Positions 8,593 to 34,236 of a stretch of DNA of 64,000 bases are shown one piece after another. A program made the translations under genes and the position numbers. This DNA is from a virus. Under the pieces are notes generated by a model, which was not told the origin of the DNA, did not search any database, and saw only the letters and a program-made list of their open reading frames with translations. The stretch's first letter is position 1. The number at the start of each line of letters is the position of its first letter. The stretch lies in IMG/VR virus record IMGVR_UViG_3300042301_002170; one strand, given 5' to 3'.

Positions 8593-9696
8593 ATGGCAAA
8601 AAGAGAAGATGATTTAGCAAGTTTACTTGCCGATTCTCTAAACAAACAAAATAAGGATGGGAAGATTGCCTATTTCTTAGACGATGATAGTTCGGATGCA
8701 CCGACAAACGTCAAAGATTGGTTATCTACGGGAAACGCAATGTTAGATGTTGCAATCTCAAACAGACCTTATGGTGGATTGCCAGTTGGTAGAATAACAG
8801 AAATAACGGGTTTAGAGCAGAGTGGAAAATCTCTGCTCTCTGCCCATTTATTAGCTGAAGCACAACGTAAAGGTGGTGTTGCAGTTCTGATTGATACCGA
8901 AACCGCAGTTAGTAGAGAATTTTTAGAAGCAATTGGAGTGGATATTTCCAAACTCCTTTATGTTTCAGTAGATACCGTTGAAGGTATTTTTGAAGCTTGT
9001 GAAACAATTATTGAGCAAGTTCGTAAGGGTGATAAGGATAGATTAGTTACAATCGTAGTAGATTCAGTAGCAGCAGCATCTTCGAAGAAAGAGATGGAAG
9101 CTGATTATGATAAAGACGGTTATGCAACTGATAAGGCAATCATCATTTCAAAAGCAATGAGAAAGATTACCAATATGATTGGTAGACAATCTATTGCATT
9201 AGTATTCACAAATCAATTAAGACAGAAGATGAACGCAATGTTTGGAGACCCTTGGACAACATCGGGTGGTAAAGCATTAGCATTCCACGCATCTGTTAGA
9301 TTGAGATTGAAGAATATGGGACAATTGAAAGCAGGGGATAGAATCGTAGGTATTAAGGTTCGTTGTCAGGTTATCAAAAACAGAATGGGACCTCCTTTGA
9401 GACACGCAGATTTTGATATTTTCTTTGATAGAGGTATTGATAATTACGGTGGTTGGATTTCAGTTATGAAAGATGCTAAATTGGTAAAACAAGGTGGTGC
9501 ATGGTACACATATACTGATATTGAATCAGGGGAGGAAATTAAATTCCAAGCAAAAGACTTCGTATCTATTTTAGAAGATGAATCTTTAAAAGACCAAATC
9601 TATCGTAGAATCTGCGAAGCAACTATTTTACAATATAAAACATCAGCATCAGAGGAAGTTGAAATAACAACGGATGAAGGCAATGAGTCAGATTAA
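8593..9696 (+). CDS. recA: RecA/UvsX recombinase
   Basis: GRITEITGLEQSGKS P-loop, VVDSVAA, TNQLR, TTSGGKALAFHASVRL. Confidence 0.95.
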   Translation: MAKREDDLASLLADSLNKQNKDGKIAYFLDDDSSDAPTNVKDWLSTGNAMLDVAISNRPYGGLPVGRITEITGLEQSGKSLLSAHLLAEAQRKGGVAVLIDTETAVSREFLEAIGVDISKLLYVSVDTVEGIFEACETIIEQVRKGDKDRLVTIVVDSVAAASSKKEMEADYDKDGYATDKAIIISKAMRKITNMIGRQSIALVFTNQLRQKMNAMFGDPWTTSGGKALAFHASVRLRLKNMGQLKAGDRIVGIKVRCQVIKNRMGPPLRHADFDIFFDRGIDNYGGWISVMKDAKLVKQGGAWYTYTDIESGEEIKFQAKDFVSILEDESLKDQIYRRICEATILQYKTSASEEVEITTDEGNESD

Positions 9697-16545: not shown

Positions 16546-16577
16546 CTTGTTTTATTCAATTTTTTTTCGTAAATTTG
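16546..16577 (+). promoter_or_regulatory. Bacteroidota sigma70-type promoter
   Basis: CTTG 16546-16549, 20-nt spacer, TAAATTTG 16570-16577. Confidence 0.6.
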
Positions 16578-16580
16578 GTT

Positions 16581-17345
16581 ATGTATAAACATTTAGATTT
16601 TCATTTAGAAAGATATAACTATGAGGTGAATTTACCACCTATCGTAGTTCAAACCATCGGAGGTATAAAGGTTGTTAGAGATGACCTTTTACCTGGCGGT
16701 ACAAAACGTAGATTCGCATATGCATATATGTTGGCATACCCACAGGTAGAGCAATGGATTTATGCATCACCAAGACAAGGATACGGACAAGTTGCATTAG
16801 CATATGCTTGTAGAGATTTAGGAAAAAAAGCAATAGTGTATGTTCCACAAGGTCAGAGAACCGAACTTACATTAGAAGCTGAAATGGTGGGTGCAGAAAT
16901 CAACGAAGTTCCTATGGGATACTTAACTAACTTAAACCGAAAGGCAAAAGATAGACAAGGAAACGGATGGGATAAGATTAAATTAGTTCCATTCGGATTT
17001 GATGACCCAATCATTCTAAACACAATTGTAGAAACGGCAAGAAAACTACCATTCACACCAAAAGAAGTTTGGAGTGTAATGAGTTCTGGAACTTTGAGTA
17101 GAGGTTTGCAGTTAGCATGGCCTGATGCAAAAGTATATGGGGTTCAGATTGGACACAACACATCAATAGTTCAGCAAGGTAGAGCAATCACAATACCAAA
17201 AAGAATGCCCTTCCACAAAGATTGTAAATTGGAAGATAGACCTCCATTCCCATCATCACTAACATATGATAGTAAAGCATGGAAACATATTCAGGAGATG
17301 GCAACAATTAGTGAAGATACTTTATTTTGGAATGTTGGAAAATAA
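16581..17345 (+). CDS. Fold-type II PLP-dependent enzyme (ACC deaminase / D-cysteine desulfhydrase-like)
   Basis: VRDDLLPGGTKRR (Schiff-base Lys), SSGTLSRG phosphate loop, TYDSKAW, FWNVG. Confidence 0.8.
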   Translation: MYKHLDFHLERYNYEVNLPPIVVQTIGGIKVVRDDLLPGGTKRRFAYAYMLAYPQVEQWIYASPRQGYGQVALAYACRDLGKKAIVYVPQGQRTELTLEAEMVGAEINEVPMGYLTNLNRKAKDRQGNGWDKIKLVPFGFDDPIILNTIVETARKLPFTPKEVWSVMSSGTLSRGLQLAWPDAKVYGVQIGHNTSIVQQGRAITIPKRMPFHKDCKLEDRPPFPSSLTYDSKAWKHIQEMATISEDTLFWNVGK

Positions 17346-17350
17346 ATGAG

Positions 17351-17379
17351 AAAATGCTTGGAAATACCAAGCATTTTTT
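17351..17379 (+). terminator. Intrinsic terminator
   Basis: AAAATGCTTGG-AAATA-CCAAGCATTTT perfect 11-bp stem with T run. Confidence 0.75.
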
Positions 17380-17388
17380 GTATATTAG
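17357..17388 (+). promoter_or_regulatory. Sigma70-type promoter overlapping the terminator
   Basis: CTTG 17357-17360, 20-nt spacer, TATATTAG 17381-17388. Confidence 0.55.
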
Positions 17389-17435
17389 TATTATAAAACA
17401 AACCGTTGCCGGACCGTACACCGGTATTAAAAGTT

Positions 17436-17789
17436 ATGAAAACATTTTTCAAAGAAACTCCAAAAGGAGCATTAGTAGAATCTACATTAATTGGACGTAA
17501 TCCAAATAGACCAGATGAATCCGTTTGGGTTAGATTTAAAAAAGAAACATCAGGAAGATATACTGTTGAAATACATTCAAATAGTAAAGATTCCGACCAA
17601 CCTTGGAATAAAGAAAATAAACCGTGGAACAATACACAATTAATTGCAGCTAAATTATATGCAATAGATGTAACTCCTGAAAGTGTATTTCGAACTAAAT
17701 CATCTTTTAATTCAAATTCAATAGATGATGCATTAAAATCCAAAGATAAACTAACTCAATTTGCTAAAAAATTGACTCAATTATTTTAA
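17436..17789 (+). CDS. Hypothetical protein
   Basis: ATG 17436 preferred over TTG 17406. Confidence 0.65.
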   Translation: MKTFFKETPKGALVESTLIGRNPNRPDESVWVRFKKETSGRYTVEIHSNSKDSDQPWNKENKPWNNTQLIAAKLYAIDVTPESVFRTKSSFNSNSIDDALKSKDKLTQFAKKLTQLF

Positions 17790-17799
17790 AATACATAAT

Positions 17800-18312
17800 A
17801 TGAAAAGCAGAGAAGAAGTAGAAAAGTGGATGCGAAATGAAGTTTCTAATCCTATAATTGGTGATTTAATTATGAGAATGACGGAAGATGGATTACCGAT
17901 GGATGAAATTTTAGAAATGATAAAACCATTAGTAGATAATACACCAAATGTAGAAAGAAAATTGGTAGAAGATTATATGAAAAAAGAAAGAATTGAAGAT
18001 GGGGATGTTATAACATCTAAAATAGAAGAGTTTGCAAACATCGCAGAACTTAATGGTTTTGAAACAATATTTTCCGTATATGAAGTTAATAATATAAATG
18101 AACTATCTGGCATTACTGCCGATTATATTACAAACGGATTAGATGCTACTCAAATCGAATTGGAAAATAAAGAATTGACTTGGTTAGAGTTATGGGCAGC
18201 TGCCGATAATTTATACAAAAAGATTGGAGATACGGAACATTTGTTTGTAGAAAGTTTTGATGTTATTCAGAATGGAGATAAAACAGAAGTTCAGGTATTC
18301 TTTGGAAGTTAA
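17800..18312 (+). CDS. Acidic hypothetical protein
   Basis: 170-aa ORF. Confidence 0.7.
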   Translation: MKSREEVEKWMRNEVSNPIIGDLIMRMTEDGLPMDEILEMIKPLVDNTPNVERKLVEDYMKKERIEDGDVITSKIEEFANIAELNGFETIFSVYEVNNINELSGITADYITNGLDATQIELENKELTWLELWAAADNLYKKIGDTEHLFVESFDVIQNGDKTEVQVFFGS

Positions 18313-18331
18313 AAATAAATAAAACAAAATG

Positions 18332-18363
18332 ATTGATAATACCAAATATATTTCGTATATTTG
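18332..18363 (+). promoter_or_regulatory. Bacteroidota sigma70-type promoter
   Basis: ATTG 18332-18335, 20-nt spacer, TATATTTG 18356-18363. Confidence 0.65.
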
Positions 18364-18368
18364 TATTA

Positions 18369-18431
18369 ATGAACCAGTGGAGCAGAACCCACTTTAAAAA
18401 ACGAAACGTTTATAACAACGCTATTATTTAA
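18369..18431 (+). CDS. Candidate leaderless 20-aa upstream peptide MNQWSRTHFKKRNVYNNAII
   Basis: Same TATATTTGTATTAATGAA context as the gene at 6769. Confidence 0.3.
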   Translation: MNQWSRTHFKKRNVYNNAII

Positions 18432-18487
18432 TAACTTCATAAACATATAAATTGAAGTTAAAAATGTAGCATAAAACACAAACAATT

Positions 18488-19834
18488 ATGAGTAATTTTA
18501 TTGATGGCTTAGTAGCCGCAGAAATCGAGCACGCGAATCAGACTCGCGATTTACAAATCAACGCACGAGCAAACGAAACAAGACGTGAGCATGGGGCAAC
18601 ATTTGAAAAGTATGTAGACACTTTATTAGTTAAAAGTGGTTTAGGATGTCAAAGAACACGTGTTAAGACATCGGATGGTGAGAAGATTAGTGACCATACG
18701 TTTAATAATGTTTGGATGGAATCCACTACATTTTTTGATAAGAAACGTGTAAACGAATTCATTCTCAAGAAAAGAGTAATTGAAGAAGCAACTGCTGATT
18801 TTACAAAATTCTTTTTGTTTTATGAGAGAAACATTACTAAATTAACAGAAGGTCTTGTAGAGAAGTTGGTAAATGCTGGATGGGTAGTGTTATGTGGTAA
18901 GAATAAAATTGAAACATTTATTAGTGCATATGGGAAGCATGCATCAAATGTTACAAATGATGTTATTCAGGTCGCGAAACCACAGTTAATTGATATAGAT
19001 TTATTAATTAAAAACCCATTTAATAGAGAACAAAATAGTAAGGGTGTAGAATCTATTGCAAAATCAATTATAAATGAAGGATTTTTAACTTGTTTATATG
19101 TTGTTCCACGAAAAGATAAAAATGGTAAGATAACAGGATATATGTTATTTGAAGGTCATCATAGATTAAGTGCAGCGATACAGGTGAGGTCTTGGGGGTT
19201 TTCATTAAATCAATTACCATGTGTAGTTGTTGATTGGTTATCTACCGATAATATGGAAAAATTATCAAGATTGTTAATTAAAATAAACGTAGAATACAGA
19301 AGTTGGAAATTGGGTGATTATATTAAACACCATTTTGATGTTGCAGAACTTTTAATCAAAGATAAGAACACTGCTTCAACTATTGTTAAAAAACAATACT
19401 CATATCAAACATTATTAAATTGGATGAAAATTGGTAAGCAATATGGATTTGGTGATAATGGGTTAATTTATATATTAGGACCTTTAACTGGTAGTGATAG
19501 GTGGTTAGACCAGGATTTGATTAGAGGTGGTGATTATATCGTAGAACAATCGGAAGTTGAAAATTATGCAACTCCATTTTTTGATGTAATGAAAAATTTT
19601 ATATCAAAGGCAAAACAAAATGCTGAATATAGAAAAGATGTATATCAATTATTCTGTTGTGAATTATATGAAAAGTTAAAAGATGGTACAGTATCGTTGG
19701 ATGAAATAAACAATTATTTTTTAGCATATAATATGTTGGATTCTACCGAAGTTCCTAATAAAAAATCCGATGTTAAAAACATATACCAAAAATTGGATGA
19801 TAATATTAAACATTTCAAAAACGGATTTAAATAA
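18488..19834 (+). CDS. Restriction-endonuclease-like domain fused to a ParB/Srx domain
   Basis: N-terminal FEKYV..ISDH..MEST (PD-(D/E)XK-like); central NPFNR..IAKSI..EG..MLFEGHHRLSA (ParB). Confidence 0.6.
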   Translation: MSNFIDGLVAAEIEHANQTRDLQINARANETRREHGATFEKYVDTLLVKSGLGCQRTRVKTSDGEKISDHTFNNVWMESTTFFDKKRVNEFILKKRVIEEATADFTKFFLFYERNITKLTEGLVEKLVNAGWVVLCGKNKIETFISAYGKHASNVTNDVIQVAKPQLIDIDLLIKNPFNREQNSKGVESIAKSIINEGFLTCLYVVPRKDKNGKITGYMLFEGHHRLSAAIQVRSWGFSLNQLPCVVVDWLSTDNMEKLSRLLIKINVEYRSWKLGDYIKHHFDVAELLIKDKNTASTIVKKQYSYQTLLNWMKIGKQYGFGDNGLIYILGPLTGSDRWLDQDLIRGGDYIVEQSEVENYATPFFDVMKNFISKAKQNAEYRKDVYQLFCCELYEKLKDGTVSLDEINNYFLAYNMLDSTEVPNKKSDVKNIYQKLDDNIKHFKNGFK

Positions 19835-19840
19835 CAATAA

Positions 19841-21070
19841 ATGTATATAAAATACTTTGATAAGTTTAAAAATATGACTCCATATCTTCACATCAATAGT
19901 GAAGAGTGGAGTTATATTAAAACAACATTTGATAGAGATGATGTAAAAGACTCTCTTGCACAGATATGTATGGAGTATGAACTTCCGTATGCAGAAATAT
20001 CAGAAACCGAAGCTAGAAAGGAATATCTTGCTCTCAAAGGAACTCGTTACAACGAACTACTTAAAGAGGGTGAGTGGTTTCCTCGTAAAGCATCGGAAAG
20101 TAAGTATCCTTTAACATTCAGAGGTAAACAACAATTCGTAAGAAGGTTGAATACTGGCAACTCTTCATCCAATTACTTCCAACAAGCAAATCGTTGGAGT
20201 GTAGATGGTACAGTTTCACCAGGACCTCATAGAACTTGGAATAGTAAGGATTTTATGACGAGTTTAATGGGTGGATTATACACTCTTAAATTTGATGAAG
20301 TGGGAAGGAACGAACTAAGAGTTTGTTTGAGTTTAAGAAAGTACATTTGCTCACAATTCAAACCTAATGTTGCCAAAGCACTCTACGATATGGTAGGTGC
20401 AAAGAATGTGTTAGACATTTCGGCAGGGTGGGGAGATAGATTATGTGGTTTTATGGCGAGTGAAAAAGGAGAGCATTACGTGGGAATTGACCCGAGAAAA
20501 GAAAATCATCCAATTTATGAACAACAAGCAGAATTCTACAAAAAACACAACGGTTTTTTCGAAACGGATAAAAAAACTACATTCCATTGCTCACCAGCGG
20601 AAGACATGGATTATAGTGATTACACCGATTATTTTGATATTGTTTTCAGCTCACCCCCGTATTTCAATGTTGAACGATATTCTTACGATGATACCCAGAG
20701 TTGGGTTAGATACAACAACATTGATGCGTGGAATAAGTTATTCCTACACAAGACAATTGAAAAGGTTTGGCCAACTATTCGGAAGGGAGGATACCTAGCA
20801 ATCAATATCGCAGATGTGTACGCAGCATCTAAAGGAGATGGTAAAGGATACCAAGAGATTACAAACCCTATGAACGATTATATTAAATCAATAGGAGGAG
20901 AATATGAAGGTTGCTTGGGCATGGAAATGGCCAAGAGACCGGGCAGCGCGGGAGCAGGTGCAATTATAGACGGTGATGAAGGTAGATATACCGAAGAATC
21001 ATTAAGAAAAGCAGAAGAGGTTAAAAATAAAACATTCTGTGAGCCAGTTTGGGTATGGAAAAAACCATAA
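19841..21070 (+). CDS. Amino-methyltransferase-fold protein (N4C/N6A type), paralogue 1
   Basis: Motif I VLDISAGWGDRL; motif IV FSSPPYFNVERYS. Confidence 0.8.
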   Translation: MYIKYFDKFKNMTPYLHINSEEWSYIKTTFDRDDVKDSLAQICMEYELPYAEISETEARKEYLALKGTRYNELLKEGEWFPRKASESKYPLTFRGKQQFVRRLNTGNSSSNYFQQANRWSVDGTVSPGPHRTWNSKDFMTSLMGGLYTLKFDEVGRNELRVCLSLRKYICSQFKPNVAKALYDMVGAKNVLDISAGWGDRLCGFMASEKGEHYVGIDPRKENHPIYEQQAEFYKKHNGFFETDKKTTFHCSPAEDMDYSDYTDYFDIVFSSPPYFNVERYSYDDTQSWVRYNNIDAWNKLFLHKTIEKVWPTIRKGGYLAINIADVYAASKGDGKGYQEITNPMNDYIKSIGGEYEGCLGMEMAKRPGSAGAGAIIDGDEGRYTEESLRKAEEVKNKTFCEPVWVWKKP

Positions 21071-21073
21071 ACA

Positions 21074-21105
21074 TTTGGAAATATCAAAAAATTATAGTAT
21101 CTTTG
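21074..21105 (+). promoter_or_regulatory. Bacteroidota sigma70-type promoter
   Basis: TTTG 21074-21077, 20-nt spacer, TATCTTTG 21098-21105. Confidence 0.75.
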
Positions 21106-21134
21106 TAAAACAAATAAATTAAAATAAAGTAAGT

Positions 21135-21854
21135 ATGAACAAAACAAGAATTACACGATTCATCCAAAAGTATAATTTGGCAGGATTAGTAGAATCAGTT
21201 GCATGGAAAGCAGCAGATGGCAAATTGGTTACCCGTTTTATCTCTGATGATAAAACAGTATTAGGTGAAATCCAATTAGATAATTTTACATTTAATGCAC
21301 CGGAGTTGGGAGTATATACAACATCCACATTAAATAAATTATTATCAGTAGTTGGAGAAGATGTTGAATTAGAAGTTCAGGAGCAAAACGGAAATGCAGT
21401 TAATTTATTCATTAAGAGCGAAGGAACAAAAGCACAATTCCAATTAGCAGATTTGGCAGTTATTCCAACTGTACCTGATTTGAAATCATTACCTGACTTT
21501 GATGTTAAGATTGAATTCGATGGTAAGTTTATTGACAAATTTATCAAAGGTAAAAATGCATTATCTGATGTAGATACTTTTACAGTATTAAGTGAGGGTG
21601 GTGAATTAAAAATTGTATTGGGTTATTCAAATGTAAATTCAAACCGAATTGCATTCTCTGCTGAAAAGGATTATACAGGAACTGTTAAACCTATTTCATT
21701 CTCTGCAAAGTATCTTAAAGAAATCTTCTCAGCAAACAAAGAAGCAAACGCAGTTACATTAAATGTATCAACATCTGGTCTTGCTCACGTTGAGTTTAAG
21801 ATTGATGACTTTACTGCAAAATATTATTTAGTAGAAGTTCAACTAACTACCTAG
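21135..21854 (+). CDS. gp45: Sliding clamp (gp45/PCNA-like)
   Basis: 239 aa with a two-domain clamp-like pattern; lies in the PolB/clamp-loader operon. Confidence 0.75.
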   Translation: MNKTRITRFIQKYNLAGLVESVAWKAADGKLVTRFISDDKTVLGEIQLDNFTFNAPELGVYTTSTLNKLLSVVGEDVELEVQEQNGNAVNLFIKSEGTKAQFQLADLAVIPTVPDLKSLPDFDVKIEFDGKFIDKFIKGKNALSDVDTFTVLSEGGELKIVLGYSNVNSNRIAFSAEKDYTGTVKPISFSAKYLKEIFSANKEANAVTLNVSTSGLAHVEFKIDDFTAKYYLVEVQLTT

Positions 21855-21855
21855 A

Positions 21856-23427
21856 ATGGCATTCAATTACGAAAAGAAGTATTTTTACGAAAGAAACGAT
21901 TGGATTTACTCTCCAGAAATAAATCTTAAATACGAAGATGTATTGAAGATGCCTTTTCCAGAGTTTGGTAAATGGGTTGATTTCTTTCGTAAGACTGCCA
22001 TTGAGCAGTGGAACAGAACGGATGCACCACCGAGAATTGGTATGGACGAAGCTGAAATTATTGAAAACTTTTCTAAACTACAAACATACAAAGTTAATGA
22101 GTTTAGTAAGGTAGACAAAGATGGTGATGAAGTTATTTTTAACTTTAACAAATTTGCCACTTGTGTAAATCAATTCTTTCCTGCAATGTACAAAACAGGT
22201 ATTGGTGGTTCTGCGTATGATAATCCAAAACCATCTATCTATGATATTTTTGTAGAAGATGAGTATTTACCAAACTTCATCAAACAGATGAATCGTCTAA
22301 CTCGTCAAGATGGTATGTATCGTTTTTCTAAAACTTTACACTTAAACCATCCTGATTTTCATAACTCACATATCCAAACTGGTAAAGAATGGATTGAGAA
22401 ATGGGCAGAGGGTGATACTCAAAAAGGATTTGGGTTTTGTTTATCTCAGGCAGATAGTAAAGTTCCATCTCCACCAATTACCGCACAAGAAGTAAGAGAT
22501 TTGTATAACGCGGGTATATTGAAGTATGAGAATATTTCATCACTTAAAACTGCGGATTGGGGTGAGAATATTGATAATCTAATTGATATTCCAAAACAAC
22601 CTATACAGATTAAAACATATCCTTTTGGTCAAACTATCTTTCCAGAAGCAACTGCGGCATTCCGTATTGGTATGGGAACACAGGCAGTAGTTAATTTTCC
22701 ACCATTAACTGCAAAGTATCTTTATCAAAGATTTACAGAGCACATTAAGGAACAAAAGAAGATTAACATTTATGACCCATCAGCAGGTTGGGGTGGTAGA
22801 ATTTTAGGAGCATTATCGGTAGATGATAGAAACATTCACTACATAGGTAATGACCCTAATACTGAAAACCAAATACCGGAAATTGGTAAGACAAGATATG
22901 AGTATTTAGCAGAATTCTTTAACAATAAGATTCCAGGTGCAAGTAATCCTTTTTGGGGACACCAAAACACTTACGAAATCTTTACAACTGGTTCTGAAAT
23001 TATTCATTTAGATTCTAACTTTCAAAAGTATAAAGGAGAATTAGATTTTGTATTTACATCTCCACCATACTTTGATAGAGAAAGATATTCAAACGATGAA
23101 ACTCAATCATTTAAGAAGTTCAGTAACTACGATAGTTGGAGAGATGGATTTTTAAGACCTACTTTAACAACTGCATTTGAATATCTTCGTAATGATAGAT
23201 ACATCCTTTGGAACATTGCGGATATTAAAATGGGTAAGGATAAGTTTTTCCCATTAGAGCAAGATTCAATTGATATTCTTACGGAGTTGGGTTGTGAGTA
23301 CAAAGGTAAGATTAAGATGACAATGAGTCCTATGACCGGTGTTGATTTGAGTGGAGTGAAAAATAGTATGAAAATAGGTGATATGGTTTACAAATACGAA
23401 CCAATCTTCATTTTCTACAAACCTTAA
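21856..23427 (+). CDS. Amino-methyltransferase-fold protein, paralogue 2
   Basis: Motif I IYDPSAGWGGRILG; motif IV FTSPPYFDRERYS; C-terminal YEPIFIFYKP. Confidence 0.8.
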   Translation: MAFNYEKKYFYERNDWIYSPEINLKYEDVLKMPFPEFGKWVDFFRKTAIEQWNRTDAPPRIGMDEAEIIENFSKLQTYKVNEFSKVDKDGDEVIFNFNKFATCVNQFFPAMYKTGIGGSAYDNPKPSIYDIFVEDEYLPNFIKQMNRLTRQDGMYRFSKTLHLNHPDFHNSHIQTGKEWIEKWAEGDTQKGFGFCLSQADSKVPSPPITAQEVRDLYNAGILKYENISSLKTADWGENIDNLIDIPKQPIQIKTYPFGQTIFPEATAAFRIGMGTQAVVNFPPLTAKYLYQRFTEHIKEQKKINIYDPSAGWGGRILGALSVDDRNIHYIGNDPNTENQIPEIGKTRYEYLAEFFNNKIPGASNPFWGHQNTYEIFTTGSEIIHLDSNFQKYKGELDFVFTSPPYFDRERYSNDETQSFKKFSNYDSWRDGFLRPTLTTAFEYLRNDRYILWNIADIKMGKDKFFPLEQDSIDILTELGCEYKGKIKMTMSPMTGVDLSGVKNSMKIGDMVYKYEPIFIFYKP

Positions 23428-23436: not shown

Positions 23437-25995
23437 ATGTATCAAAATATTTATTACGAAAGACAAAAGAATTTAATTCACTTATGGGATGATACCAATG
23501 GGTATCAGACATTTCCATACAGAAAGTATGCATATGTTAAAGACCAACATGGTGAACATCGTTCTATGTATGGTGATAAATTACGGAAGATTTCTAAATG
23601 GGAAAAAGATGAATCACCTGATTTATTTGAATCCGATGTACCAGAAACAACCAGAGTATTAGTTGATATATATGATTCTGATATTCCATCAAAAGGAAAC
23701 AGAACAATGACCTTTGATATTGAGGTTGAAATGATTAGTGGTTTGCCAAATACCTTTGATGCAAAAAACGAAATCACTGCAATTGCTTCGCACGATAGTG
23801 TAACCAAATTGTATGATGTGTTTGTGTTGGATAAGGCAAGAAAGGTAAAAAACACTGCTCAACAATTCAATAAAGATGGTCGTAGTGTGAGTGTACACAT
23901 CTTTGATAATGAGAAGAATTTGCTATTAGCATTTTTAACTTATTATCAAGGTGTGAATCCTACTATTCTAACAGGTTGGAATATTGACTTCTTTGATATT
24001 CCTTATTTATACAATCGTATTAAGAGAGTATGTGGTGAAGGACATGCAAAGAGATTATCACCCATTTCAGAAACATTCTATTCTCCTTACAGACAAAGAT
24101 GGAGTTTTGGTGGTGTATCCATTTTAGATTACATCAACCTCTACAAAAACTACAACTATGGTTTAGAAAGTTCATATACATTAGACCACATAGCAAAGAA
24201 AGAGTTGGGCAGAGGTAAGATTGAATATGAAGGAAGTTTGGATGATTTATTCGAAAACGATTTAGAAAAGTTTATTGAATATAACATTGTCGATGTAGAC
24301 TTGGTAGTATCAATGGATGAGAAACTTCAATTCATTGAGTTATGTAGAGCAATCTGCCACGCGGGATTTGTTCCGTATGAAGATTATATGTTCTCATCAA
24401 AGTATTTGGAAGGCGCGTGTTTAGCGTATCTGAAAAAGAAAGGTTTAGTAGCACCAAATAAACCAAAGGATAGGAAAGAGAAGATGCAGGCACTTCGTGA
24501 TAATAACGAAGAGAAGTTTATCGGAGCTTATGTAAAAGAACCCATTGTTGGTAAGTATGATTGGATTTATGACTTGGACTTAACATCCCTATATCCATCA
24601 ATCATTATGACCCTAAATATTTCACCCGAAACAAAGATTGGTAAGATTTCTAATTGGGAACCTGAAGAATGGGTAAGAGGTATAAATAAGAATTATACAA
24701 TTGTTGGAAAAGATGATACTTATGAATATAGTAGTTCAGAACTCCAAGATGTTATAAAAGATAGCAACTTAGGAGTTGCAGCAAACGGAGTTTTGTACAA
24801 TCAGGACAAACCTGGACTTATTGCTGATATTCTGGATACTTGGTTTAAACAACGAGTTGAATTCAGAAAATTAGAAAAACAATATGGTGAAGCGGGTGAT
24901 ACGGAAAAATATGAGTTTTATGCGAAACGCCAGCTTGTCCAAAAGATTCTTCTTAACTCTATGTATGGTGTTCTTGGTCTTCCTGCCTTTCGGTTTTACG
25001 ATATTGATAATGCAGAGGCAGTTACGATTACGGGGCAAACTGTTATTAAGAAAACGGCAGAGATGGCAAACATCAAATATTGGAAAGAGTTAGGTACAAA
25101 AGAAGATTACAATGTCTACATAGATACCGATTCAATCTATATGATGGCAGAACCTTTGGTTAAACATCGTTATCCAGATTACAAAACATTTGATGAACAA
25201 AGAATGGCAGATGAAGTTAATACTATTGCAGAAGAAACCCAAACATTCTTAAACAACTTTTACGATTTATTATCAGAAAGATTCTTCGGAATACCAAAAG
25301 ATAAACATAGATTTGAAATCAAAAAAGAATACATCTCCAAAGCAGGATTTTGGGTAGCAAAGAAACGTTACGCACAATGGATGGTATTGAAAAATGGTAT
25401 CAAATGTGATAAGTTGGACGTAAAAGGTTTAGATGTAGTTCGTTCATCATTCCCCAAAGCATTTCAAGGATTCATGTCAACAATGTTAAAAGACATTTTG
25501 ATGGGTAAAGATAATGATTATATAGATAAAACCCTAATTGAATTTAAGAATAGTTTACCAACACTTCCTGTTAAAACTATTGCAAAGGGTGGGGCAATTA
25601 AAGAGTTGAGTAAGTATGATGATGGTAAGTGGAGAAAAGATAGTGGGTTACAGATTGCAGTGTTTGAGAAAGGAACACCTGCACACGTTAAAGCAGGAAT
25701 TGCATACAACCGATTATTGAAATTCTTCAATTCACCGTTTAAGCATGAACCAATTAGAGATGGTGATAAAGTTAAGTGGGTGTATTTAAGACAAAATCCA
25801 TTAGGATTGGATACGGTTGCTTTTAAAGATTACAATGACCCTAAAGAAATTATGGATTTCATTGAACAGTACATAGATAGAGACATGATTTATAAAGCAG
25901 AGTTAGAAAACAAATTAGATGATTTTTACAACGCACTAAAATGGAACAAAGCATCTAACGAAGTTCAAACTGCAAAAAAATTCTTTGATTTCTAA
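23437..25995 (+). CDS. gp43: Family B DNA polymerase
   Basis: Exo motifs FDIEV and GWNIDFFDIPY; DLTSLYPS, KILLNSMYG, YIDTDS. Confidence 0.97.
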   Translation: MYQNIYYERQKNLIHLWDDTNGYQTFPYRKYAYVKDQHGEHRSMYGDKLRKISKWEKDESPDLFESDVPETTRVLVDIYDSDIPSKGNRTMTFDIEVEMISGLPNTFDAKNEITAIASHDSVTKLYDVFVLDKARKVKNTAQQFNKDGRSVSVHIFDNEKNLLLAFLTYYQGVNPTILTGWNIDFFDIPYLYNRIKRVCGEGHAKRLSPISETFYSPYRQRWSFGGVSILDYINLYKNYNYGLESSYTLDHIAKKELGRGKIEYEGSLDDLFENDLEKFIEYNIVDVDLVVSMDEKLQFIELCRAICHAGFVPYEDYMFSSKYLEGACLAYLKKKGLVAPNKPKDRKEKMQALRDNNEEKFIGAYVKEPIVGKYDWIYDLDLTSLYPSIIMTLNISPETKIGKISNWEPEEWVRGINKNYTIVGKDDTYEYSSSELQDVIKDSNLGVAANGVLYNQDKPGLIADILDTWFKQRVEFRKLEKQYGEAGDTEKYEFYAKRQLVQKILLNSMYGVLGLPAFRFYDIDNAEAVTITGQTVIKKTAEMANIKYWKELGTKEDYNVYIDTDSIYMMAEPLVKHRYPDYKTFDEQRMADEVNTIAEETQTFLNNFYDLLSERFFGIPKDKHRFEIKKEYISKAGFWVAKKRYAQWMVLKNGIKCDKLDVKGLDVVRSSFPKAFQGFMSTMLKDILMGKDNDYIDKTLIEFKNSLPTLPVKTIAKGGAIKELSKYDDGKWRKDSGLQIAVFEKGTPAHVKAGIAYNRLLKFFNSPFKHEPIRDGDKVKWVYLRQNPLGLDTVAFKDYNDPKEIMDFIEQYIDRDMIYKAELENKLDDFYNALKWNKASNEVQTAKKFFDF

Positions 25996-26036: not shown

Positions 26037-26369
26037 ATGGCAGAACAATTAGATTTATTTCCACAAGAGGAATTACAACAACAAGACGCGGGTAGTGTTC
26101 AATCACCTGAATTAACCCCAATAGCAGATGCAGAGTGGTGTTTTCAATTTTTTAACAACGAACCAATAACATTTGCATGGTCAAATGAGGGAGAAGAAGC
26201 TGCACCATTGGTTTTACAAATTCAACCACAAGAAGGTGAAGGGTTAAATTTTCAACAAAACGGAATGACTTTTAGAATTTTCCCAAGACCAATTACAGAA
26301 GAAACTAAACAAGCAAGAAAAGAACAAAATGAAAGTAAAAATCAAACTACTGAACAATCAGGCAACTAA
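26037..26369 (+). CDS. Small acidic protein with an N-terminal QLDLF motif
   Basis: Begins MAEQLDLFPQ. Confidence 0.7.
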   Translation: MAEQLDLFPQEELQQQDAGSVQSPELTPIADAEWCFQFFNNEPITFAWSNEGEEAAPLVLQIQPQEGEGLNFQQNGMTFRIFPRPITEETKQARKEQNESKNQTTEQSGN

Positions 26370-26754
26370 ACCAAAGTACGCAAAAGAAAGTGATGCAGGA
26401 TTAGATTTGGTGGCAACATCAATTATATCAAACACAACATTTCAGGTAACATATGGTTTGGGTATTGCAATGGAAATACCAGAAGGTATGGTTGGTTTAG
26501 TATTTCCCCGTTCTTCAATAAGAAACACAGAATTGATACTAAGTAATTCAGTTGGTGTAATTGATGCAGGTTATAGGGGTGAATTACAAGCAACATTTAT
26601 CAAATTAAATGGTTTAGATTCAGTTGCATATAATGTTGGTGATAGAGTTTGTCAAATCATTATAGTTCCTCATCCTGTAGTACAATTACAGGTAGTAGAT
26701 GAGTTAAGTGAAAGTGCAAGAGGTATAGGTGGGTTTGGTTCAACAGGTAAATAA
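26329..26754 (+). CDS. dut: Trimeric dUTPase
   Basis: AGLDL, PRSS, GVIDAGYRGE, RGIGGFGSTG. Confidence 0.95.
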   Translation: MKVKIKLLNNQATKPKYAKESDAGLDLVATSIISNTTFQVTYGLGIAMEIPEGMVGLVFPRSSIRNTELILSNSVGVIDAGYRGELQATFIKLNGLDSVAYNVGDRVCQIIIVPHPVVQLQVVDELSESARGIGGFGSTGK

Positions 26755-29302: not shown

Positions 29303-30685
29303 ATGGCAAAAAAGAAAATATTATTACTATCGGATGACCTCCGAATGGCTAGTGGAATAGCCAATGTTTCCAAACAATTAGTTATGGGAACAGTTGATAA
29401 GTACGATTGGGTACAATTAGGAGCAGCAATCAAACATCCAGAAGCAGGTAAAGTTTTAGATTTAAATGAAGATGTCCGTACCAGAACAGGTATAGTAGAT
29501 GCTTCCGTTAAAATTTATCCATCCGATGGATATGGTAATCCTGATATTATCCGTCAATTGTTGATGATTGAAAAACCAGATGCAATCTTACACTTTACAG
29601 ACCCGAGATATTGGATTTGGTTGTATGAGATTGAGCATGAAATTCGTCAATCAGTACCACTTTTCTTTTACCATATTTGGGATGATTTACCAGACCCAAA
29701 ATACAATAGAGATTATTACGAAAGTTGTGATTGGATTGGATGTATTTCAAAACAAACTTATGGTATTACTCGTAGAGTTTGGGGTTGGGATAAGGAGAAA
29801 CATTGGGTTAAACCTGCAGATTGGCAAGTAAGTTATGTACCACATGGTATTAATTCCGAATTGTATAAACCAGTTGAAGTACCAGCTGAATTTAAAAAAG
29901 AAATCTTTGGTGATAAAGAATATGATTTTGTTTTATATTGGAATAATAGAAACATTCGTAGAAAACAACCAATTGATGTTATTTTAGCATTTGATAAGTT
30001 CGTTGAAGCACTTGCACCGGAACATAGAGATAAAGTATGTTTATTGATGCACACACAACCTGTGGAAGAGCATGGAACAGATTTACCGAGAACTATAGCA
30101 GAGTGTTGTTCACCTGAAACAAATGTAGTATTTGCACCAAACAGATATACGGAAGAGCAACTAAACTATCTTTATAATTTAGGAGATGTAACAATCAATG
30201 TGGCATCCAATGAAGGGTTTGGATTAGCAACCGCAGAATCTGTGATGGCAGGAACACCAATCATTGTAACAGTTACAGGTGGATTACAAGACCAATGTGG
30301 ATTCAGAGATAAAGCAAGTGGTAAGTTATTAACTGCTGAAGATTATGTAGAAATTGGTTCATTACACGATAGACATAAAAAAGCAGGTGTAGTTTGGGGT
30401 GATTGGGTTAAGCCAATTTGGCCAGTTCGTTCAACAACAGGTTCAGTTCCTACACCATACATCTTTGATGATAGAGTTGATTTTGAAGATATTTCACCTT
30501 TGATTATGGATTGGTATAGAATGCCAAAAGAAGATAGAGATGCAGCAGCATTGAAAGGTAGAAAGTGGATGTTGGGAGATGGGTTGTTGAGTAGAGAAGC
30601 AATGTGTAAAACATTGGTTGATGGAATGGAGGGAGCATTTGAAAATTGGACACCAAAGAAAAAATTTAAGTTAATAGAGTTATAA
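29303..30685 (+). CDS. GT4-like (GT-B) glycosyltransferase
   Basis: LLSDDLR..SGIA, NRNIRRKQ, ASNEGFGLATAES. Confidence 0.85.
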   Translation: MAKKKILLLSDDLRMASGIANVSKQLVMGTVDKYDWVQLGAAIKHPEAGKVLDLNEDVRTRTGIVDASVKIYPSDGYGNPDIIRQLLMIEKPDAILHFTDPRYWIWLYEIEHEIRQSVPLFFYHIWDDLPDPKYNRDYYESCDWIGCISKQTYGITRRVWGWDKEKHWVKPADWQVSYVPHGINSELYKPVEVPAEFKKEIFGDKEYDFVLYWNNRNIRRKQPIDVILAFDKFVEALAPEHRDKVCLLMHTQPVEEHGTDLPRTIAECCSPETNVVFAPNRYTEEQLNYLYNLGDVTINVASNEGFGLATAESVMAGTPIIVTVTGGLQDQCGFRDKASGKLLTAEDYVEIGSLHDRHKKAGVVWGDWVKPIWPVRSTTGSVPTPYIFDDRVDFEDISPLIMDWYRMPKEDRDAAALKGRKWMLGDGLLSREAMCKTLVDGMEGAFENWTPKKKFKLIEL

Positions 30686-30686
30686 T

Positions 30687-31958
30687 ATGAAACCAACATT
30701 AGTATTTCAGGCACCAGTAGCAACAAGGAGTGGATATGGTGACCACGCGAGAGATTTATTACATTCTCTATATAAATTAGATAAATTTGATATTAAAATT
30801 ATTAGCACTCGTTGGGGACAAACCCCAATGGATGTGCTTAATTATGATAATGAATTTCACAAATGGGTAGTTGATAATATAATTCCAGGTGTGCAAGAAA
30901 AACCTGACATTTATATTCAAATTACAGTTCCAAATGAATTTCAACCCGTTGGTGCTTATAACATTGGAATTACGGCAGCAATCGAAACAACACATTGTGC
31001 ATTGGATTGGATACATGGTTGTAATAGAATGGATTTAATTATAGTACCATCCGAACATTCTAAAAAGAGTTTAGTTGATACAGTTTATAATGAAGCAGAT
31101 AAGCAAACAAATCAATTAATTGCACAACATAAAATTCAAAAACCAGTAGAAGTTCTTTTTGAAGGATTTAACGAAAATTTTGGTACTAACGATTTTCAAT
31201 ATGTGTCAGAATTGGATGAAATCAAAGAAGATTTCGCATTCCTATTCGTAGGACATTGGTTGAGAGGTGATTTGGGTGAAGATAGAAAGAATGTAGGAAT
31301 GATGATTAAAACATTCGCAATGGCATTCAAAAATGAAAAGAAAAAACCCGCATTAGTTCTTAAAACTTCATCAGCAGGATTTAGTATTTTAGATAGAGAA
31401 GCGACTATTAAAAAGATTAGAGAAGTGTTAGGTAAAGATTATGGACAAGTTCCCATTTATTTACTACATGGTGATTTAACTGAAGCCGAAATGAATGGGT
31501 TATATGAACATCCAAAAGTAAAAGCAATGTTAAACTTTACAAAAGGTGAGGGATTTGGTAGACCTTTGTTAGAATTTAGTTTAACTGGCAAACCTATAAT
31601 AGTAAGTGGATGGAGTGGGCATTTAGATTTCTTAAAGAGTGGAGCAGTGTTATTGGAAGGTGAATTAAAAGAAGTACATGAATCAGCAGCAGACCAATTC
31701 TTATTAAAAGAAGCAAAGTGGTTTAATGTAAATATTTCAAAAGCATTATCAATAATTAAAGATGTTTATAAAAACTACAATAAATACAAAATTGAATCAT
31801 CTAAGTTAGGAAAACAAAATAAACAGAATTTTAGTTTAGGAAAAATGACAGAATTGTTTGATGGTATTTTGGGAAATTATGGTATTTATACTAAAGTACA
31901 ACCTAAGTTTCAACAGTTACAATTACCTAAATTAAAGATGTTAAAGAAAGGTGAGTAA
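30687..31958 (+). CDS. GT4-like glycosyltransferase
   Basis: RSGYG.HAR, DRKNVG, TKGEGFGRPLLE. Confidence 0.82.
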   Translation: MKPTLVFQAPVATRSGYGDHARDLLHSLYKLDKFDIKIISTRWGQTPMDVLNYDNEFHKWVVDNIIPGVQEKPDIYIQITVPNEFQPVGAYNIGITAAIETTHCALDWIHGCNRMDLIIVPSEHSKKSLVDTVYNEADKQTNQLIAQHKIQKPVEVLFEGFNENFGTNDFQYVSELDEIKEDFAFLFVGHWLRGDLGEDRKNVGMMIKTFAMAFKNEKKKPALVLKTSSAGFSILDREATIKKIREVLGKDYGQVPIYLLHGDLTEAEMNGLYEHPKVKAMLNFTKGEGFGRPLLEFSLTGKPIIVSGWSGHLDFLKSGAVLLEGELKEVHESAADQFLLKEAKWFNVNISKALSIIKDVYKNYNKYKIESSKLGKQNKQNFSLGKMTELFDGILGNYGIYTKVQPKFQQLQLPKLKMLKKGE

Positions 31959-32454
31959 TTTCAATCCACTATATAGAAGATTCATTGATGATTCAAATAA
32001 AGTTACTCCTAATCAAATGGTTAGGGGTAACTTTTATATTATTAAAGAATATGAATATGTAGATGGACATAAAGGAAATTATTCGGAAACAACTGCACCT
32101 ATAATCTATACTTTATTTGTATCCAAATCAAAAGATATAGTTCATGCAATTAAAGTATCAAATGTGAATCCACAATTGATAAAGAAATTCTTTGGTAAAT
32201 TTGTAAATGAAGATACTGAATTAAATATTAGAGGTGGTGCTAAAAACTTTTATGAAAAGATAGTAAGTTCAGTACCTATAATATCTAATGATTCGTATAG
32301 AACTTACAAATTAAGTGGTTTAGGAAAGATTACACATATTAATATGGATAATACTCAATTAGTTCCTAAAAACAAATTACCAAAACCACAACCACAACCT
32401 GCGGCAACATTTAAAAATCAACCAACAAACGATTCAATAGTAAAAGAACAATAG
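31951..32454 (+). CDS. Hypothetical protein
   Basis: 167-aa ORF overlapping the upstream stop. Confidence 0.65.
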   Translation: MSNFNPLYRRFIDDSNKVTPNQMVRGNFYIIKEYEYVDGHKGNYSETTAPIIYTLFVSKSKDIVHAIKVSNVNPQLIKKFFGKFVNEDTELNIRGGAKNFYEKIVSSVPIISNDSYRTYKLSGLGKITHINMDNTQLVPKNKLPKPQPQPAATFKNQPTNDSIVKEQ

Positions 32455-32456
32455 TT

Positions 32457-32921
32457 ATGACATCAAAAGAATTTATCCTTTGGTTAAAGGGGTTTTCAGA
32501 AGGAGTACATGAATACAATATTACTCCAAAACAATGGGATATTGTAAAAGAAAAATTGGCAGAAGTTAAAGATGAACCAACACCATCTTTACCATTTGGA
32601 GTTCCGAATACTGCACCAATTGTAACATTACCATATATTACACCTGGTCCATCAACAGACCCGTACAACCCATATAAGATACATTGTGGTACAACTAGTG
32701 GAATATTGACGGTGGCAACCGGAAGTGGTGGAACTATTACATATAATCCATCTTCAACAACTCAATGGAATCCAAGTGGTTCTAATTGGAGTTATACGAA
32801 TAATACATATGTATCATCGGCTGATATGTGGTCAGAACATCAAGCAAGAATGGCACACTATAAACCATATCAACCATATACAACGGGTGGAGAAGACGAA
32901 GTTATAAAAACAGAAGAATAA
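32457..32921 (+). CDS. Hypothetical protein with a Pro/Thr-rich tail
   Basis: 154-aa ORF. Confidence 0.6.
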   Translation: MTSKEFILWLKGFSEGVHEYNITPKQWDIVKEKLAEVKDEPTPSLPFGVPNTAPIVTLPYITPGPSTDPYNPYKIHCGTTSGILTVATGSGGTITYNPSSTTQWNPSGSNWSYTNNTYVSSADMWSEHQARMAHYKPYQPYTTGGEDEVIKTEE

Positions 32922-33544
32922 TGAAAATAAGTTACGCAATTACAGTATGTAATGAATTCGATGAAACGATTAAATTACTTACTCAGTTATTAAACTATAA
33001 AGGAGAGAATTCCGAAATAGTAGTCCTATTAGATACACCCAAAGCACAACCCGAATTATTAGAGTATTTAGAATTACAGGCAAATGCTGATAAAATCAAT
33101 TTGATTGAATCGGAATTTGATAATGATTTTGCACAATGGAAAAACTTTTTAAATTCACAATGTAGTGGTGAATGGATTTTTCAGTTGGATGCGGATGAAT
33201 TATTAGATGAGAATTTAATTGTTAATTTAGAAGAAATTTTAGATGCAAACACAGATAAGGATTTGATATTAGTTCCACGTATAAACATAGTAAATGGTTT
33301 AACGGATGTACATATCAAACAATGGGGATGGGATGTAAACGAATACGGTTGGGTTAATTTTCCAGATGCACAGACTCGTATTTACAAAAACAAACCAACT
33401 ATTGGTTGGAGTGGTAAGGTACATGAAAGAATCGGTGGGTTTGAATCATATACAAATCTTCCAGGTGATGAGGTATATTGTATTAAACATATCAAAGAAA
33501 TTACAAGACAAGAAAAACAAAATAGTTACTATAACACTTTATAA
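32921..33544 (+). CDS. GT2-like glycosyltransferase
   Basis: ISYAITVCNE, WIFQLDADE (DxD), KVHE. Confidence 0.85.
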   Translation: MKISYAITVCNEFDETIKLLTQLLNYKGENSEIVVLLDTPKAQPELLEYLELQANADKINLIESEFDNDFAQWKNFLNSQCSGEWIFQLDADELLDENLIVNLEEILDANTDKDLILVPRINIVNGLTDVHIKQWGWDVNEYGWVNFPDAQTRIYKNKPTIGWSGKVHERIGGFESYTNLPGDEVYCIKHIKEITRQEKQNSYYNTL

Positions 33545-34236
33545 TGGTTCACATATATTATCACATATATTCGATTGAGGGTGTTGAATCTATTATAGAT
33601 GAGCAACTTAAACTTATTGAAACTCATTTCGATATACCTTTTATTCTAAATGTTGGTATTTCGATAGCAGATGATAATTCACCAACCGATACAATAATAA
33701 AAAGATTTTATGATTATCAAAAACCAAATTATAGAATAAGAGATGTTCGTTCAAAAGGACATGAATTTGTTACTTTAGACTTAATAGAAAAAGATAAAGA
33801 AACATTTGGAAATTCGGATTATATTTTGTATCTTCACACTAAAGGAGCATCTAAACAAAAAGATGCACAATACCCAAACATAGTAAGTTGGAGAAATTTA
33901 ATGCAATACTTTAATATTGAAAAAATTAAAAATGTATTTAGAATATTTGATAAAACCGATTTTAACACATATGGTGTATTATTGGAAACTGTAAATAGTT
34001 CGAATCACACAATATATTCTGGCAATTTTTGGTGGATGAAAGCAGAATATGCAAAAACTATAAACATAGATAGTGTTAAGAAAAATAGATGGAACGCTGA
34101 GTTACAATATGTGCAGAAAGGAGTAGATTGGAAACCATATTCTGAATTTAATAAAGATGAAAATGATTCTATGATGCAAAAAAGAAATATTTACGAAATA
34201 AATTTTAAAAGAGAAGATTATACTTCATTAATATAA
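33544..34236 (+). CDS. Putative glycan-related enzyme (GT-A-like)
   Basis: ILYLHTKG..W and YSGNFWW motifs; island context. Confidence 0.45.
   Translation: MVHIYYHIYSIEGVESIIDEQLKLIETHFDIPFILNVGISIADDNSPTDTIIKRFYDYQKPNYRIRDVRSKGHEFVTLDLIEKDKETFGNSDYILYLHTKGASKQKDAQYPNIVSWRNLMQYFNIEKIKNVFRIFDKTDFNTYGVLLETVNSSNHTIYSGNFWWMKAEYAKTINIDSVKKNRWNAELQYVQKGVDWKPYSEFNKDENDSMMQKRNIYEINFKREDYTSLI

Follow-up and report, generated by a model that had tools for sequence, protein, structure and literature searches.

Gene content of the region

A stretch of 64,000 nucleotides of viral DNA (IMG/VR record IMGVR_UViG_3300042301_002170; referred to as the window) was analyzed with a focus on a 7-kb region, positions 16,581 to 23,427, that belongs to the replication module of an uncultured myovirus-like phage of low GC content (approximately 32%). 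The window represents part of a genome of approximately 200 kb, and gene absences were checked on the window and on the contigs of its relatives. A preliminary description, made from the letters alone, had named four genes in this region, and their open reading frames (ORFs), family matches and structure models verified that all four are real and encoded on the plus strand: a fold-type II pyridoxal phosphate (PLP) enzyme, a fusion of a nuclease-fold domain with a ParB domain (nuclease-ParB), and two paralogous proteins, MT1 and MT2, with the fold of S-adenosylmethionine (SAM)-dependent methyltransferases and an SPPY motif. The reported interleaving with the replication module was also found, as MT1 and MT2 flank the sliding clamp gene and the family B DNA polymerase gene (PolB) follows at 23437. 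All genes of the region point in the same direction, and their order is a thioredoxin-like gene (orf90), the PLP enzyme, a terminator-like hairpin, orf127, orf170, a promoter-like site, nuclease-ParB, MT1, the clamp, MT2 and PolB. The identical gene order was observed in several independent metagenome assemblies. MT1, MT2 and the PLP enzyme probably constitute a module for the hypermodification of DNA bases that does not employ the hydroxymethyl-uracil route. The gene identities, folds, homologies, fusions and neighborhoods are established, and from these we infer the chemistry, namely the transfer of a methyl or an aminocarboxypropyl group and the choice of adenine or cytosine.

A PLP enzyme related to DNA-adduct decarboxylases

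The PLP enzyme is compact (16575..17345, plus strand), with 256 amino acids if translation starts at the TTG at 16575 and 254 amino acids if it starts at the ATG at 16581. It matched PF00291 (PALP) under the Pfam cut-off (E 1.5e-7) and PHROG 7093, termed 'threonine dehydratase', with an E-value of 4e-36, and a sequence search of the PDB returned only weak matches to diaminopropionate ammonia-lyase and serine dehydratase. The preliminary description had likened it to the decarboxylases of phage thymidine hypermodification, and a full-length homolog was indeed identified in gp52 of Pseudomonas phage M6 (BLASTP, 26% identity over residues 16-256, E 2e-16); in phage genomes searched with tblastn, the Pseudomonas YuA/M6-like phages were matched. 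Lys44, which lies within a GGTK motif, pairs with Lys36 of gp52 in the alignment and is the same catalytic lysine, and the C-terminal motif PPFP...YD.KAW...FWN is common to both proteins. Residues G42, K44, G172 and W252 are invariant across 48 relatives, and with them the catalytic lysine and the glycine loop that binds phosphate in fold-type II PLP enzymes. When purified, gp52 and gp226 of Salmonella phage ViI remove the carboxyl group of amino acids linked to thymidine in DNA, and C-alpha-glycinyl-thymidine in DNA served as the in vitro substrate of gp52 (PMC8989533). By homology, the PLP enzyme is assigned to the family of these proven DNA-adduct decarboxylases. The family is represented by 1,073 clusters at 50% identity (library-wide phmmer, E <= 1e-3), and multi-domain fusions account for approximately one fifth of the best 150 clusters. 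A narrow alignment used against a genome collection retrieved 16 loci, all of them in metagenome-assembled genomes (MAGs) and none in cultured organisms.

Two paralogous proteins with an amino-methyltransferase fold

MT1 (19841..21070, plus strand, 409 amino acids) combines a conserved N-terminal domain with the fold of class I SAM-dependent methyltransferases; its motif I reads DISAGWGDR and its motif IV SSPPYF. Its paralog MT2 (21856..23427, plus strand, 523 amino acids) contains a longer and different N-terminal region, motif I DPSAGWGGR and motif IV TSPPYF. The two proteins share 29% identity over the catalytic half (E 4e-26), in which motif I reads D-x-SAGWG, the acidic motif II G(I/N)DP and motif IV S-P-P-Y-F. 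These three motifs are invariant among 25 MT1 orthologs (D192, G196, W197, G198, D217 and S271-P-P-Y274), as is much of the N-terminal domain, and conservation spans the full length of the protein. Motif I, an acidic motif II and a PPY motif IV place MT1 among the proteins with a class I SAM-binding fold, and its structure model (predicted local distance difference test score, pLDDT, 88.6) displays this fold. Sequence profiles matched at low scores: MT2 reached 24.6 bits with PF01555 (E 2.8e-5), under the gathering threshold of 26.7, and the sole Pfam match of MT1 was Methyltransf_31 with 17.1 bits against a cut-off of 27. MT1, MT2 and nuclease-ParB yielded no matches to PDB sequences, and the N-terminal region of MT2 matched only unnamed viral clusters of the protein Atlas at chance-level scores. 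MT1 is present in 78 IMG/VR loci and near-universal within this phage group, 2440 relatives of MT2 were found in a protein collection, and the MT family as a whole numbers thousands of proteins from marine and freshwater viromes and extends to giant viruses. Amino-methyltransferases that act on N4 of cytosine typically carry a serine in motif IV. For MT1 and MT2, this residue may be taken as a weak pointer to cytosine.

The nearest solved folds to the MT1 model belong to the amine-directed enzymes Trm11, TrmN, Trm14, METTL5 and HemK2 (Z approximately 15; Trm11 and TrmN 15.6). DNA methylases, RNA methylases and aminocarboxypropyl transferases were each considered as the single closest class for MT1 and were not separable by Foldseek or VIA. 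In a viral structure library, the whole two-domain architecture of MT1 was detected in Pithovirus proteins, which are annotated as N4-cytosine methylases, and in a salmon gill poxvirus protein. It was also detected in a 699-amino-acid Satyrvirus protein, which combines an MT1-like fold with a region named glutathione synthase.

As Trm11, TrmN and Trm14 are tRNA N2-methylguanosine enzymes and full-length structural relatives occur in Pithovirus and a poxvirus, the enzymes might act on RNA (tRNA, rRNA or, in giant viruses, mRNA caps) or on free nucleotides before replication and not on polymeric DNA. The frequent location of HD phosphohydrolase genes beside PLP genes in other lineages, as in phages that edit the dNTP pool, would fit the latter. 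This explanation is considered very unlikely: the genes sit between the clamp and PolB, the fusion partners described below are ParB domains and PF01555 DNA methylases, the characterized PLP homolog acts on DNA, and in a different phage lineage, L018, the neighbors include a member of a DNA-base glycosyltransferase family and a GmrSD-type nuclease.

Fusions, adjacency and joint transfer connect the PLP and MT families

Analysis of 49 long PLP-domain proteins revealed a PF01555 domain in 26, an Eco57I methylase in three and Methyltransf_15 in one; further partners were YunG (PF24585, 9/49) and ParB_N (1/49). In at least 13 fusions, an xAGWG...SPPY domain was assigned by BLAST to the MT family of the window (E 1e-15 to 1e-31). 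In a maximum-likelihood tree, MT-PLP fusions are found in at least three clades, one of which is sister to the MT2 clade (97/87) and one of which falls on the MT1 side. Among cultured phages, gp1 of Erythrobacter phage R6L (vB_EliS-R6L) is an MTase-PLP fusion, labeled solely as a CcrM-like methylase in the R6L paper, and Microcystis phage Mae-JY30 encodes ParB, MTase and PLP proteins consecutively. A Tara contig (L162) contains a PLP gene, a YunG-MTase gene and a ParB gene in this order, and on MAG contigs (L174-L179) the PLP gene lies next to MT2-like, MT-PLP-MT or ParB-MTase genes. The L018 lineage shares with the window solely the PLP enzyme (58%), MT1 (59%), MT2 (45%) and PhoH (31%), and its MT2 gene is located directly 5' of the PLP gene. 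A co-occurrence analysis of gene neighborhoods, proposed in the preliminary description as a check, detected an MT-family gene in 19 of the 20 PLP loci flanked by 5 kb or more on each side; the reverse relationship, detailed below, was far less strict. Since repeated fusion, adjacency in unrelated viruses and transfer as a module are three independent lines of evidence, the PLP family is, as judged from sequence comparisons, functionally tied to the MT family and to other amino-methyltransferases.

PLP domains were also seen fused to 2-oxoglutarate (2OG) oxygenases of the Asp/Asn beta-hydroxylase type (3/49) and to DUF3102 (P0132, P0229 and other fusion proteins). The island of L018 (L018:5299-17854) encodes ThyX, a phosphoribosyltransferase, PhoH, a protein similar to methylthioadenosine/S-adenosylhomocysteine (MTA/SAH) nucleosidases, the MT2-like protein, the PLP enzyme, a GT-B enzyme, a TET-associated glycosyltransferase (TAGT), a GmrSD_N-HNH protein, an HD protein and two copies of MT1. 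Nearby MTA/SAH-nucleosidase-like genes fit a heavy use of SAM and do not discriminate between methyl and aminocarboxypropyl transfer.

In another group of fusions, the PLP domain interrupts the methyltransferase, following motif I and preceding a motif IV of the CPPY type, in some cases together with an N-terminal ParB domain. A PLP domain inside a methyltransferase suggests a composite active site and raises the question whether the PLP domain itself forms the C-N bond, by gamma-replacement on SAM or beta-replacement on a serine derivative, with the MT fold only flipping and presenting the base or holding the adenosyl part of SAM. Fold-type II PLP enzymes carry out beta- and gamma-substitutions, and nucleoside antibiotic pathways include a known PLP-dependent step in which an aminobutyryl group is transferred from SAM. 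Nevertheless, MT1 shows no variation in its SAM-binding motifs, phages without the PLP gene retain MT1 and MT2, and the sole characterized members of the subfamily, M6 gp52 and ViI gp226, are decarboxylases (PMC8989533). Bond formation by the PLP domain is thus judged quite unlikely.

Absence of the thymidine hypermodification genes

The genes of the hydroxymethyl-uracil pathway had not been visible to the preliminary description, and targeted searches agree with this. M6 gp51, gp53, gp54 and gp58, a TS-like (thymidylate synthase-like) protein and ThyX were used as phmmer queries against all six frames of the window and gave nothing at E <= 1; a normal dUTPase gene is present at 26329-26754. 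The amino-acid:DNA transferase ADDT (PF18724) and the 5-hydroxymethyl-deoxyuridine (5-hmdU) DNA kinase HMUDK (PF18748) had no match in the contigs of five relatives, one of them a complete 288-kb genome, and PF18724 had none in the complete genomes of R6L and Mae-JY30, with M6 as a clear positive control. The same five sets of contigs yielded no C5-methylase, no CmoA (TIGR00740; controls positive) and no Tet_JBP, the last searched without a positive control. A weak TS-like gene was found in the L092 lineage only, among the relatives examined.

It could be argued that the PLP enzyme serves classical thymidine hypermodification and that the kinase and the amino-acid:DNA transferase are encoded in the part of the approximately 200 kb genome outside the window. 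Relatives of the L092 type, in which the weak TS-like gene and a fusion of a P-loop protein and a GNAT acetyltransferase stand beside a divergent PLP enzyme, would fit such a pathway. Given the empty transferase and kinase searches in the contigs of relatives, the normal dUTPase and a window that contains neither TS nor ThyX, this is highly improbable.

A hypervariable slot upstream of MT1

Comparison of the 78 MT1 loci showed that MT1 is the stable element and the PLP enzyme an accessory gene. The slot directly upstream of MT1 is hypervariable among close relatives. In 18 of the 78 loci it contains an asparagine-synthase-like (AsnB-like) gene and a GNAT gene whose end overlaps the start of MT1; eight loci encode a divergent PLP enzyme together with an AsnB-like protein and a weak TS-like gene, and three to four a divergent PLP enzyme and a 2-hydroxyacid dehydrogenase. 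All of these alternative cassettes act on carboxylate or amine ends. Individual examples are L131:7985-10010 (AsnB-like and GNAT, the latter overlapping the MT1 start), L082:4412-9990 (AsnB-like, 2-hydroxyacid dehydrogenase, a divergent PLP enzyme of 279 amino acids and a 756-amino-acid protein without an assigned role) and L092:11238-15508 (the P-loop-GNAT fusion, the weak thymidylate-synthase-like gene, AsnB-like and a divergent PLP enzyme). Since the PLP gene is swapped in sister phages for other enzymes that act on amino-acid ends, the decoration is probably variable between strains.

Several of these observations speak against a dedicated modification module. No tailoring gene is found within 10 kb in 42 of the 78 MT1 loci, which fits a plain methylase, and the PLP enzyme of the window's type is present in only five. 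L131, whose PolB is 99% identical to that of the window, encodes AsnB-like and GNAT proteins in place of the PLP enzyme, orf127, orf170 and nuclease-ParB. Downstream of the window's PLP gene lie the terminator-like hairpin and two ORFs without an assigned role, so that the gene is not coupled to an MT gene here. The AsnB-like protein exceeds the NCBIfam cut-off for true asparagine synthase and could be a metabolic gene, much of the PLP-MT co-occurrence in T4-like relatives could be shared synteny, and nuclease-ParB is patchy, being detected in one of approximately 150 related IMG/VR loci. The claim of the preliminary description that the four genes form a single modification system is hence upheld in part: the PLP enzyme is tied to the SPPY proteins by fusions and adjacency, but the four genes do not form one conserved unit.

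Taken at face value, the slot would suit MT1 and MT2 being ordinary anti-restriction methylases that produce N4-methylcytosine or N6-methyladenine, with the PLP enzyme, the small ORFs and nuclease-ParB as unrelated cargo. Vibrio and Staphylococcus phages indeed encode distant relatives of the MT proteins that are annotated as methylases, and those genomes have no PLP gene. Yet unrelated cargo would not account for a PLP family that was repeatedly and independently fused to the same MT family and to other amino-methyltransferases, and that adjoins MT genes in unrelated siphoviruses and on MAG contigs, and a methylated base offers a PLP enzyme no substrate. We regard ordinary methylation as unlikely and a hypermodification module as the better account of the data.

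Nuclease-ParB is a plausible companion

Nuclease-ParB (18488..19834, plus strand) ends six bases upstream of the MT1 start. The fusion of a restriction-endonuclease-like domain with ParB in the preliminary description was confirmed by an AlphaFold model (pLDDT 86), which comprises a PD-(D/E)XK nuclease-fold domain (residues approximately 34-155), a ParB/sulfiredoxin (Srx) domain (approximately 160-270) and a helical C-terminal region. Residues 34-155 display the alpha-beta-beta-beta-alpha-beta core of the PD-(D/E)XK fold and matched AF1548 (Z 11.6), Can2 (10.5), PspGI (10.5) and EcoRII (8.8) in VIA comparisons. Residues 160-270 adopt the ParB fold, with PadC (Z 12.0) and sulfiredoxin (Z 10.0) as matches, and the protein was recognized by ParB PHROGs (E 2e-11). 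The protein has 43 relatives in a large protein collection. Residues E40, D69, H70, E78-S-T-T and K94 and an EGHHR motif, at the GxxR box of ParB, are invariant across 19 homologs; within the D...(D/E)xK signature, D69 and E78 are thus conserved and Thr80 occupies the expected lysine position. From the alignment, the invariant K94 or R87 might stand in for this lysine. A feature match to DndB in the Atlas (0.81) is taken as a lead only.

A PLP enzyme (56% identity) is encoded on a contig of 72 kb from the bin of a Candidatus Pelagibacter MAG (L172:33-3093), followed by a full-length nuclease-ParB homolog (33%, E 3.5e-68) and an HD protein, and this lineage may infect SAR11-type hosts. In L018, the ParB-superfamily domain GmrSD_N and an HNH nuclease are found at a comparable position, and ParB domains and ParB-superfamily nucleases recur beside MT-PLP pairs elsewhere. 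Published partnerships are known as well: ParB homologs activate phage T-dioxygenases (PMC13229309) and ParBc proteins accompany CmoX (PMC12783734). Based on the homolog in a second lineage, the L018 nuclease and these partnerships, a companion role of nuclease-ParB in the MT-PLP module is plausible by analogy. Discrimination of modified from unmodified DNA, the role given to it in the preliminary description, is hypothetical. This second-lineage homolog, the structural confirmation of the fusion and the alternative cassettes in the MT1 slot are contributed by the present analysis.

A model for base hypermodification

In the proposed hypermodification pathway, the MT-fold proteins would bind SAM, flip a base with an exocyclic amine into the S-P-P-Y motif and transfer an amino-acid-bearing group onto this amine, probably N4 of cytosine, as favored by the motif IV serine. 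The simplest such group would be the 3-amino-3-carboxypropyl arm of SAM, with release of methylthioadenosine. By homology to M6 gp52, the PLP enzyme would then form a Schiff base with the free alpha-amine of the adduct and remove CO2, which would leave an aminopropyl group. In sister phages, where the PLP gene is replaced by an AsnB-like amidotransferase and a GNAT acetyltransferase or by a divergent PLP enzyme and a 2-hydroxyacid dehydrogenase, the same arm would be amidated, acetylated, or deaminated and reduced. Nuclease-ParB would be an optional companion, co-transcribed with MT1, that could attack unmarked DNA or help to load the transferase. Aminocarboxypropyl transfer followed by decarboxylation is the simplest model because the substrate of a PLP decarboxylase must offer both a primary alpha-amine and a carboxylate, the sole conserved partner is a SAM-binding, amine-directed fold, SAM carries such an arm, and no other attachment machinery was found.

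Two points count against this specific chemistry. Neither the sequence nor the MT1 model separates methyl from aminocarboxypropyl transfer, and the Z score of the MT1 model with TYW2 (3a27), 13.5 and below that of many ordinary methyltransferases, does not discriminate; and the partners of the PLP family span several methyltransferase classes, so that the transferred group would have to be changed in each class. It is therefore only tentatively suggested that MT1 and MT2 could be the first DNA aminocarboxypropyl transferases, acting on N4 of cytosine (or N6 of adenine) in replicated phage DNA, and that strain-specific cassettes might tailor the arm to an aminopropyl (PLP decarboxylase), a carboxamide and/or N-acetyl (AsnB-like and GNAT) or a hydroxy-acid form (divergent PLP enzyme and 2-hydroxyacid dehydrogenase). 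A search of the literature returned no description of aminocarboxypropyl or aminopropyl DNA modification in phages or of methylase-PLP fusions.

Genomic context and further features

On its 5' side the region is preceded by genes for gp32, RecA, a DnaB-like helicase, ribonucleotide reductase, PhoH and a thioredoxin-like protein, and on its 3' side it is followed by PolB, dUTPase and the clamp loader. A palindromic hairpin with an 11-bp stem and a T run (17351..17377), located 6 nt past the PLP stop codon, resembles an intrinsic terminator. The small orf127 (17406..17789, plus strand; 127 amino acids, 117 as called in metagenome assemblies) has no family match, is found at the same position in other assemblies and was not found in the related loci searched. 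The neighboring orf170 (17800..18312, plus strand, 170 amino acids) gave only a weak, chance-level Pfam match and is variably present among close relatives; a copy with 93% identity lies directly upstream of MT1 in L084. The sliding clamp between MT1 and MT2 (21135..21854, plus strand; PCNA_C E 2.8e-4) is syntenic in relatives. PolB (23437..25995, plus strand) was identified by PF00136 (E 1.6e-34) and PHROG 262 (E 2e-182). Its nearest cultured relative is Microcystis phage Mel-JY01 with 49.7% identity, in which neither PLP nor MT genes were found, and the 7-kb region had no blastn match among 50,697 phage records.

Elsewhere in the window, a 419-amino-acid ORF (2910-4169) has a weak match to family A DNA polymerases (PF00476, E 1.6e-7, under the cut-off), though the phage replicates via a family B polymerase. 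The window also encodes a RecA of bacterial type (8593-9696; PF00154, E 4e-61), a GroEL-type chaperonin (48030-49667; E 1e-73) and a small 2OG-Fe(II) oxygenase-like protein (47256-47816; PF13640, E 3e-4, under the cut-off). A glycosylation island (29303-44124) contains a 'conflict systems' glycosyltransferase GT4 (PF20706), a sugar-transfer-associated ATP-grasp protein, a GT2-radical SAM fusion, a Gfo/Idh/MocA oxidoreductase and a fragment of a DegT-type aminotransferase; candidates for its target are DNA, the virion or the host surface.

Implications

The DNA hypermodifications known from phages proceed from hydroxymethyl-pyrimidines, from 7-deazaguanine and, since 2025, also from carboxymethyl-cytosine. 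If the proposed reading is true, an enzyme of amino-methyltransferase fold together with a DNA-adduct PLP enzyme would represent a further entry point, probably at the Watson-Crick face amine of cytosine or adenine, and abundant aquatic phages would contain a whole set of cationic or zwitterionic DNA bases not seen before. With approximately 1,000 PLP clusters at 50% identity and thousands of MT family members, the modification could be common in nature, though invisible to standard sequencing and annotation. Such bases bear on the arms races between phages and hosts (restriction and CRISPR resistance), on biases in metagenome library preparation and on enzymatic tools for site-specific DNA labeling with amine handles. 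The presence of MTase-PLP pairs in two cultured phages, Erythrobacter R6L and Microcystis Mae-JY30, renders the question directly testable.

Comparison with known systems

MT1 and MT2 share motif I, the (S/D/N)PPY motif IV, weak PF01555 matches and a frequent ParB partnership with N4-cytosine/N6-adenine DNA methyltransferases (PF01555) and phage ParB-methylase fusions. They differ in Pfam scores under the cut-off, in their large conserved N-terminal domains and in the recurrent PLP fusion, which has no role in simple methylation. The class I methyltransferase fold is also that of TYW2 of wybutosine synthesis, which is among the structural matches of MT1 and whose type of reaction, in which a nucleobase receives the amino-acid arm of SAM, is proposed here. 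No specific sequence or structural affinity of TYW2 to MT1 stood out beyond the common fold. TYW2 acts on tRNA, at a carbon, and we know of no TYW2-like aminocarboxypropyl transferase with a DNA substrate.

Nuclease-ParB is reminiscent of the modification-dependent nucleases of GmrSD type and of the ParB-dependent activators of T-dioxygenases (PMC13229309), in which a ParB-superfamily domain is joined to or located beside a nuclease or DNA-modifying enzyme in hypermodification clusters, whereas its domain order and nuclease type are different. In the CmoA/CmoX/CmoY system of Synechococcus phage S-B43, 5-carboxymethylcytosine serves as a hypermodification handle (PMC12783734). Like this system, the proposed model employs a DNA-methyltransferase homolog that would add a larger, reactive group for elaboration by a second enzyme, and ParBc proteins often co-occur. 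CmoX, however, is a C5-cytosine methylase homolog that uses the carboxy-SAM made by CmoA, whereas the transferases described here are of the amino-methyltransferase type and no CmoA was found in the five relatives' contigs. Furthermore, the tailoring enzyme here is PLP-dependent and needs a primary amine, which a carboxymethyl group does not contain.

The closest parallel is provided by the pathways of phage M6 and Salmonella phage ViI, which produce 5-(2-aminoethyl)-2'-deoxyuridine (5-NedU) and 5-(2-aminoethoxy)methyl-2'-deoxyuridine (5-NeOmdU), respectively, with a 5-hmdU DNA kinase, an amino-acid:DNA transferase and a PLP decarboxylase (PMC8989533). Unlike in these phages, no source of 5-hmdU, kinase or amino-acid:DNA transferase was found here, and an S/CPPY protein of methyltransferase fold is the conserved partner. 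Instead of C5 of uracil, an exocyclic amine of cytosine or adenine is the probable target, with SAM, and not a free amino acid, as the probable donor. What is shared is a PLP homolog with the same catalytic lysine and, in the proposed pathway, the attachment of an amino-acid-bearing group that would then be tailored by interchangeable enzymes, be it a PLP decarboxylase, an acetyltransferase or an amidotransferase.

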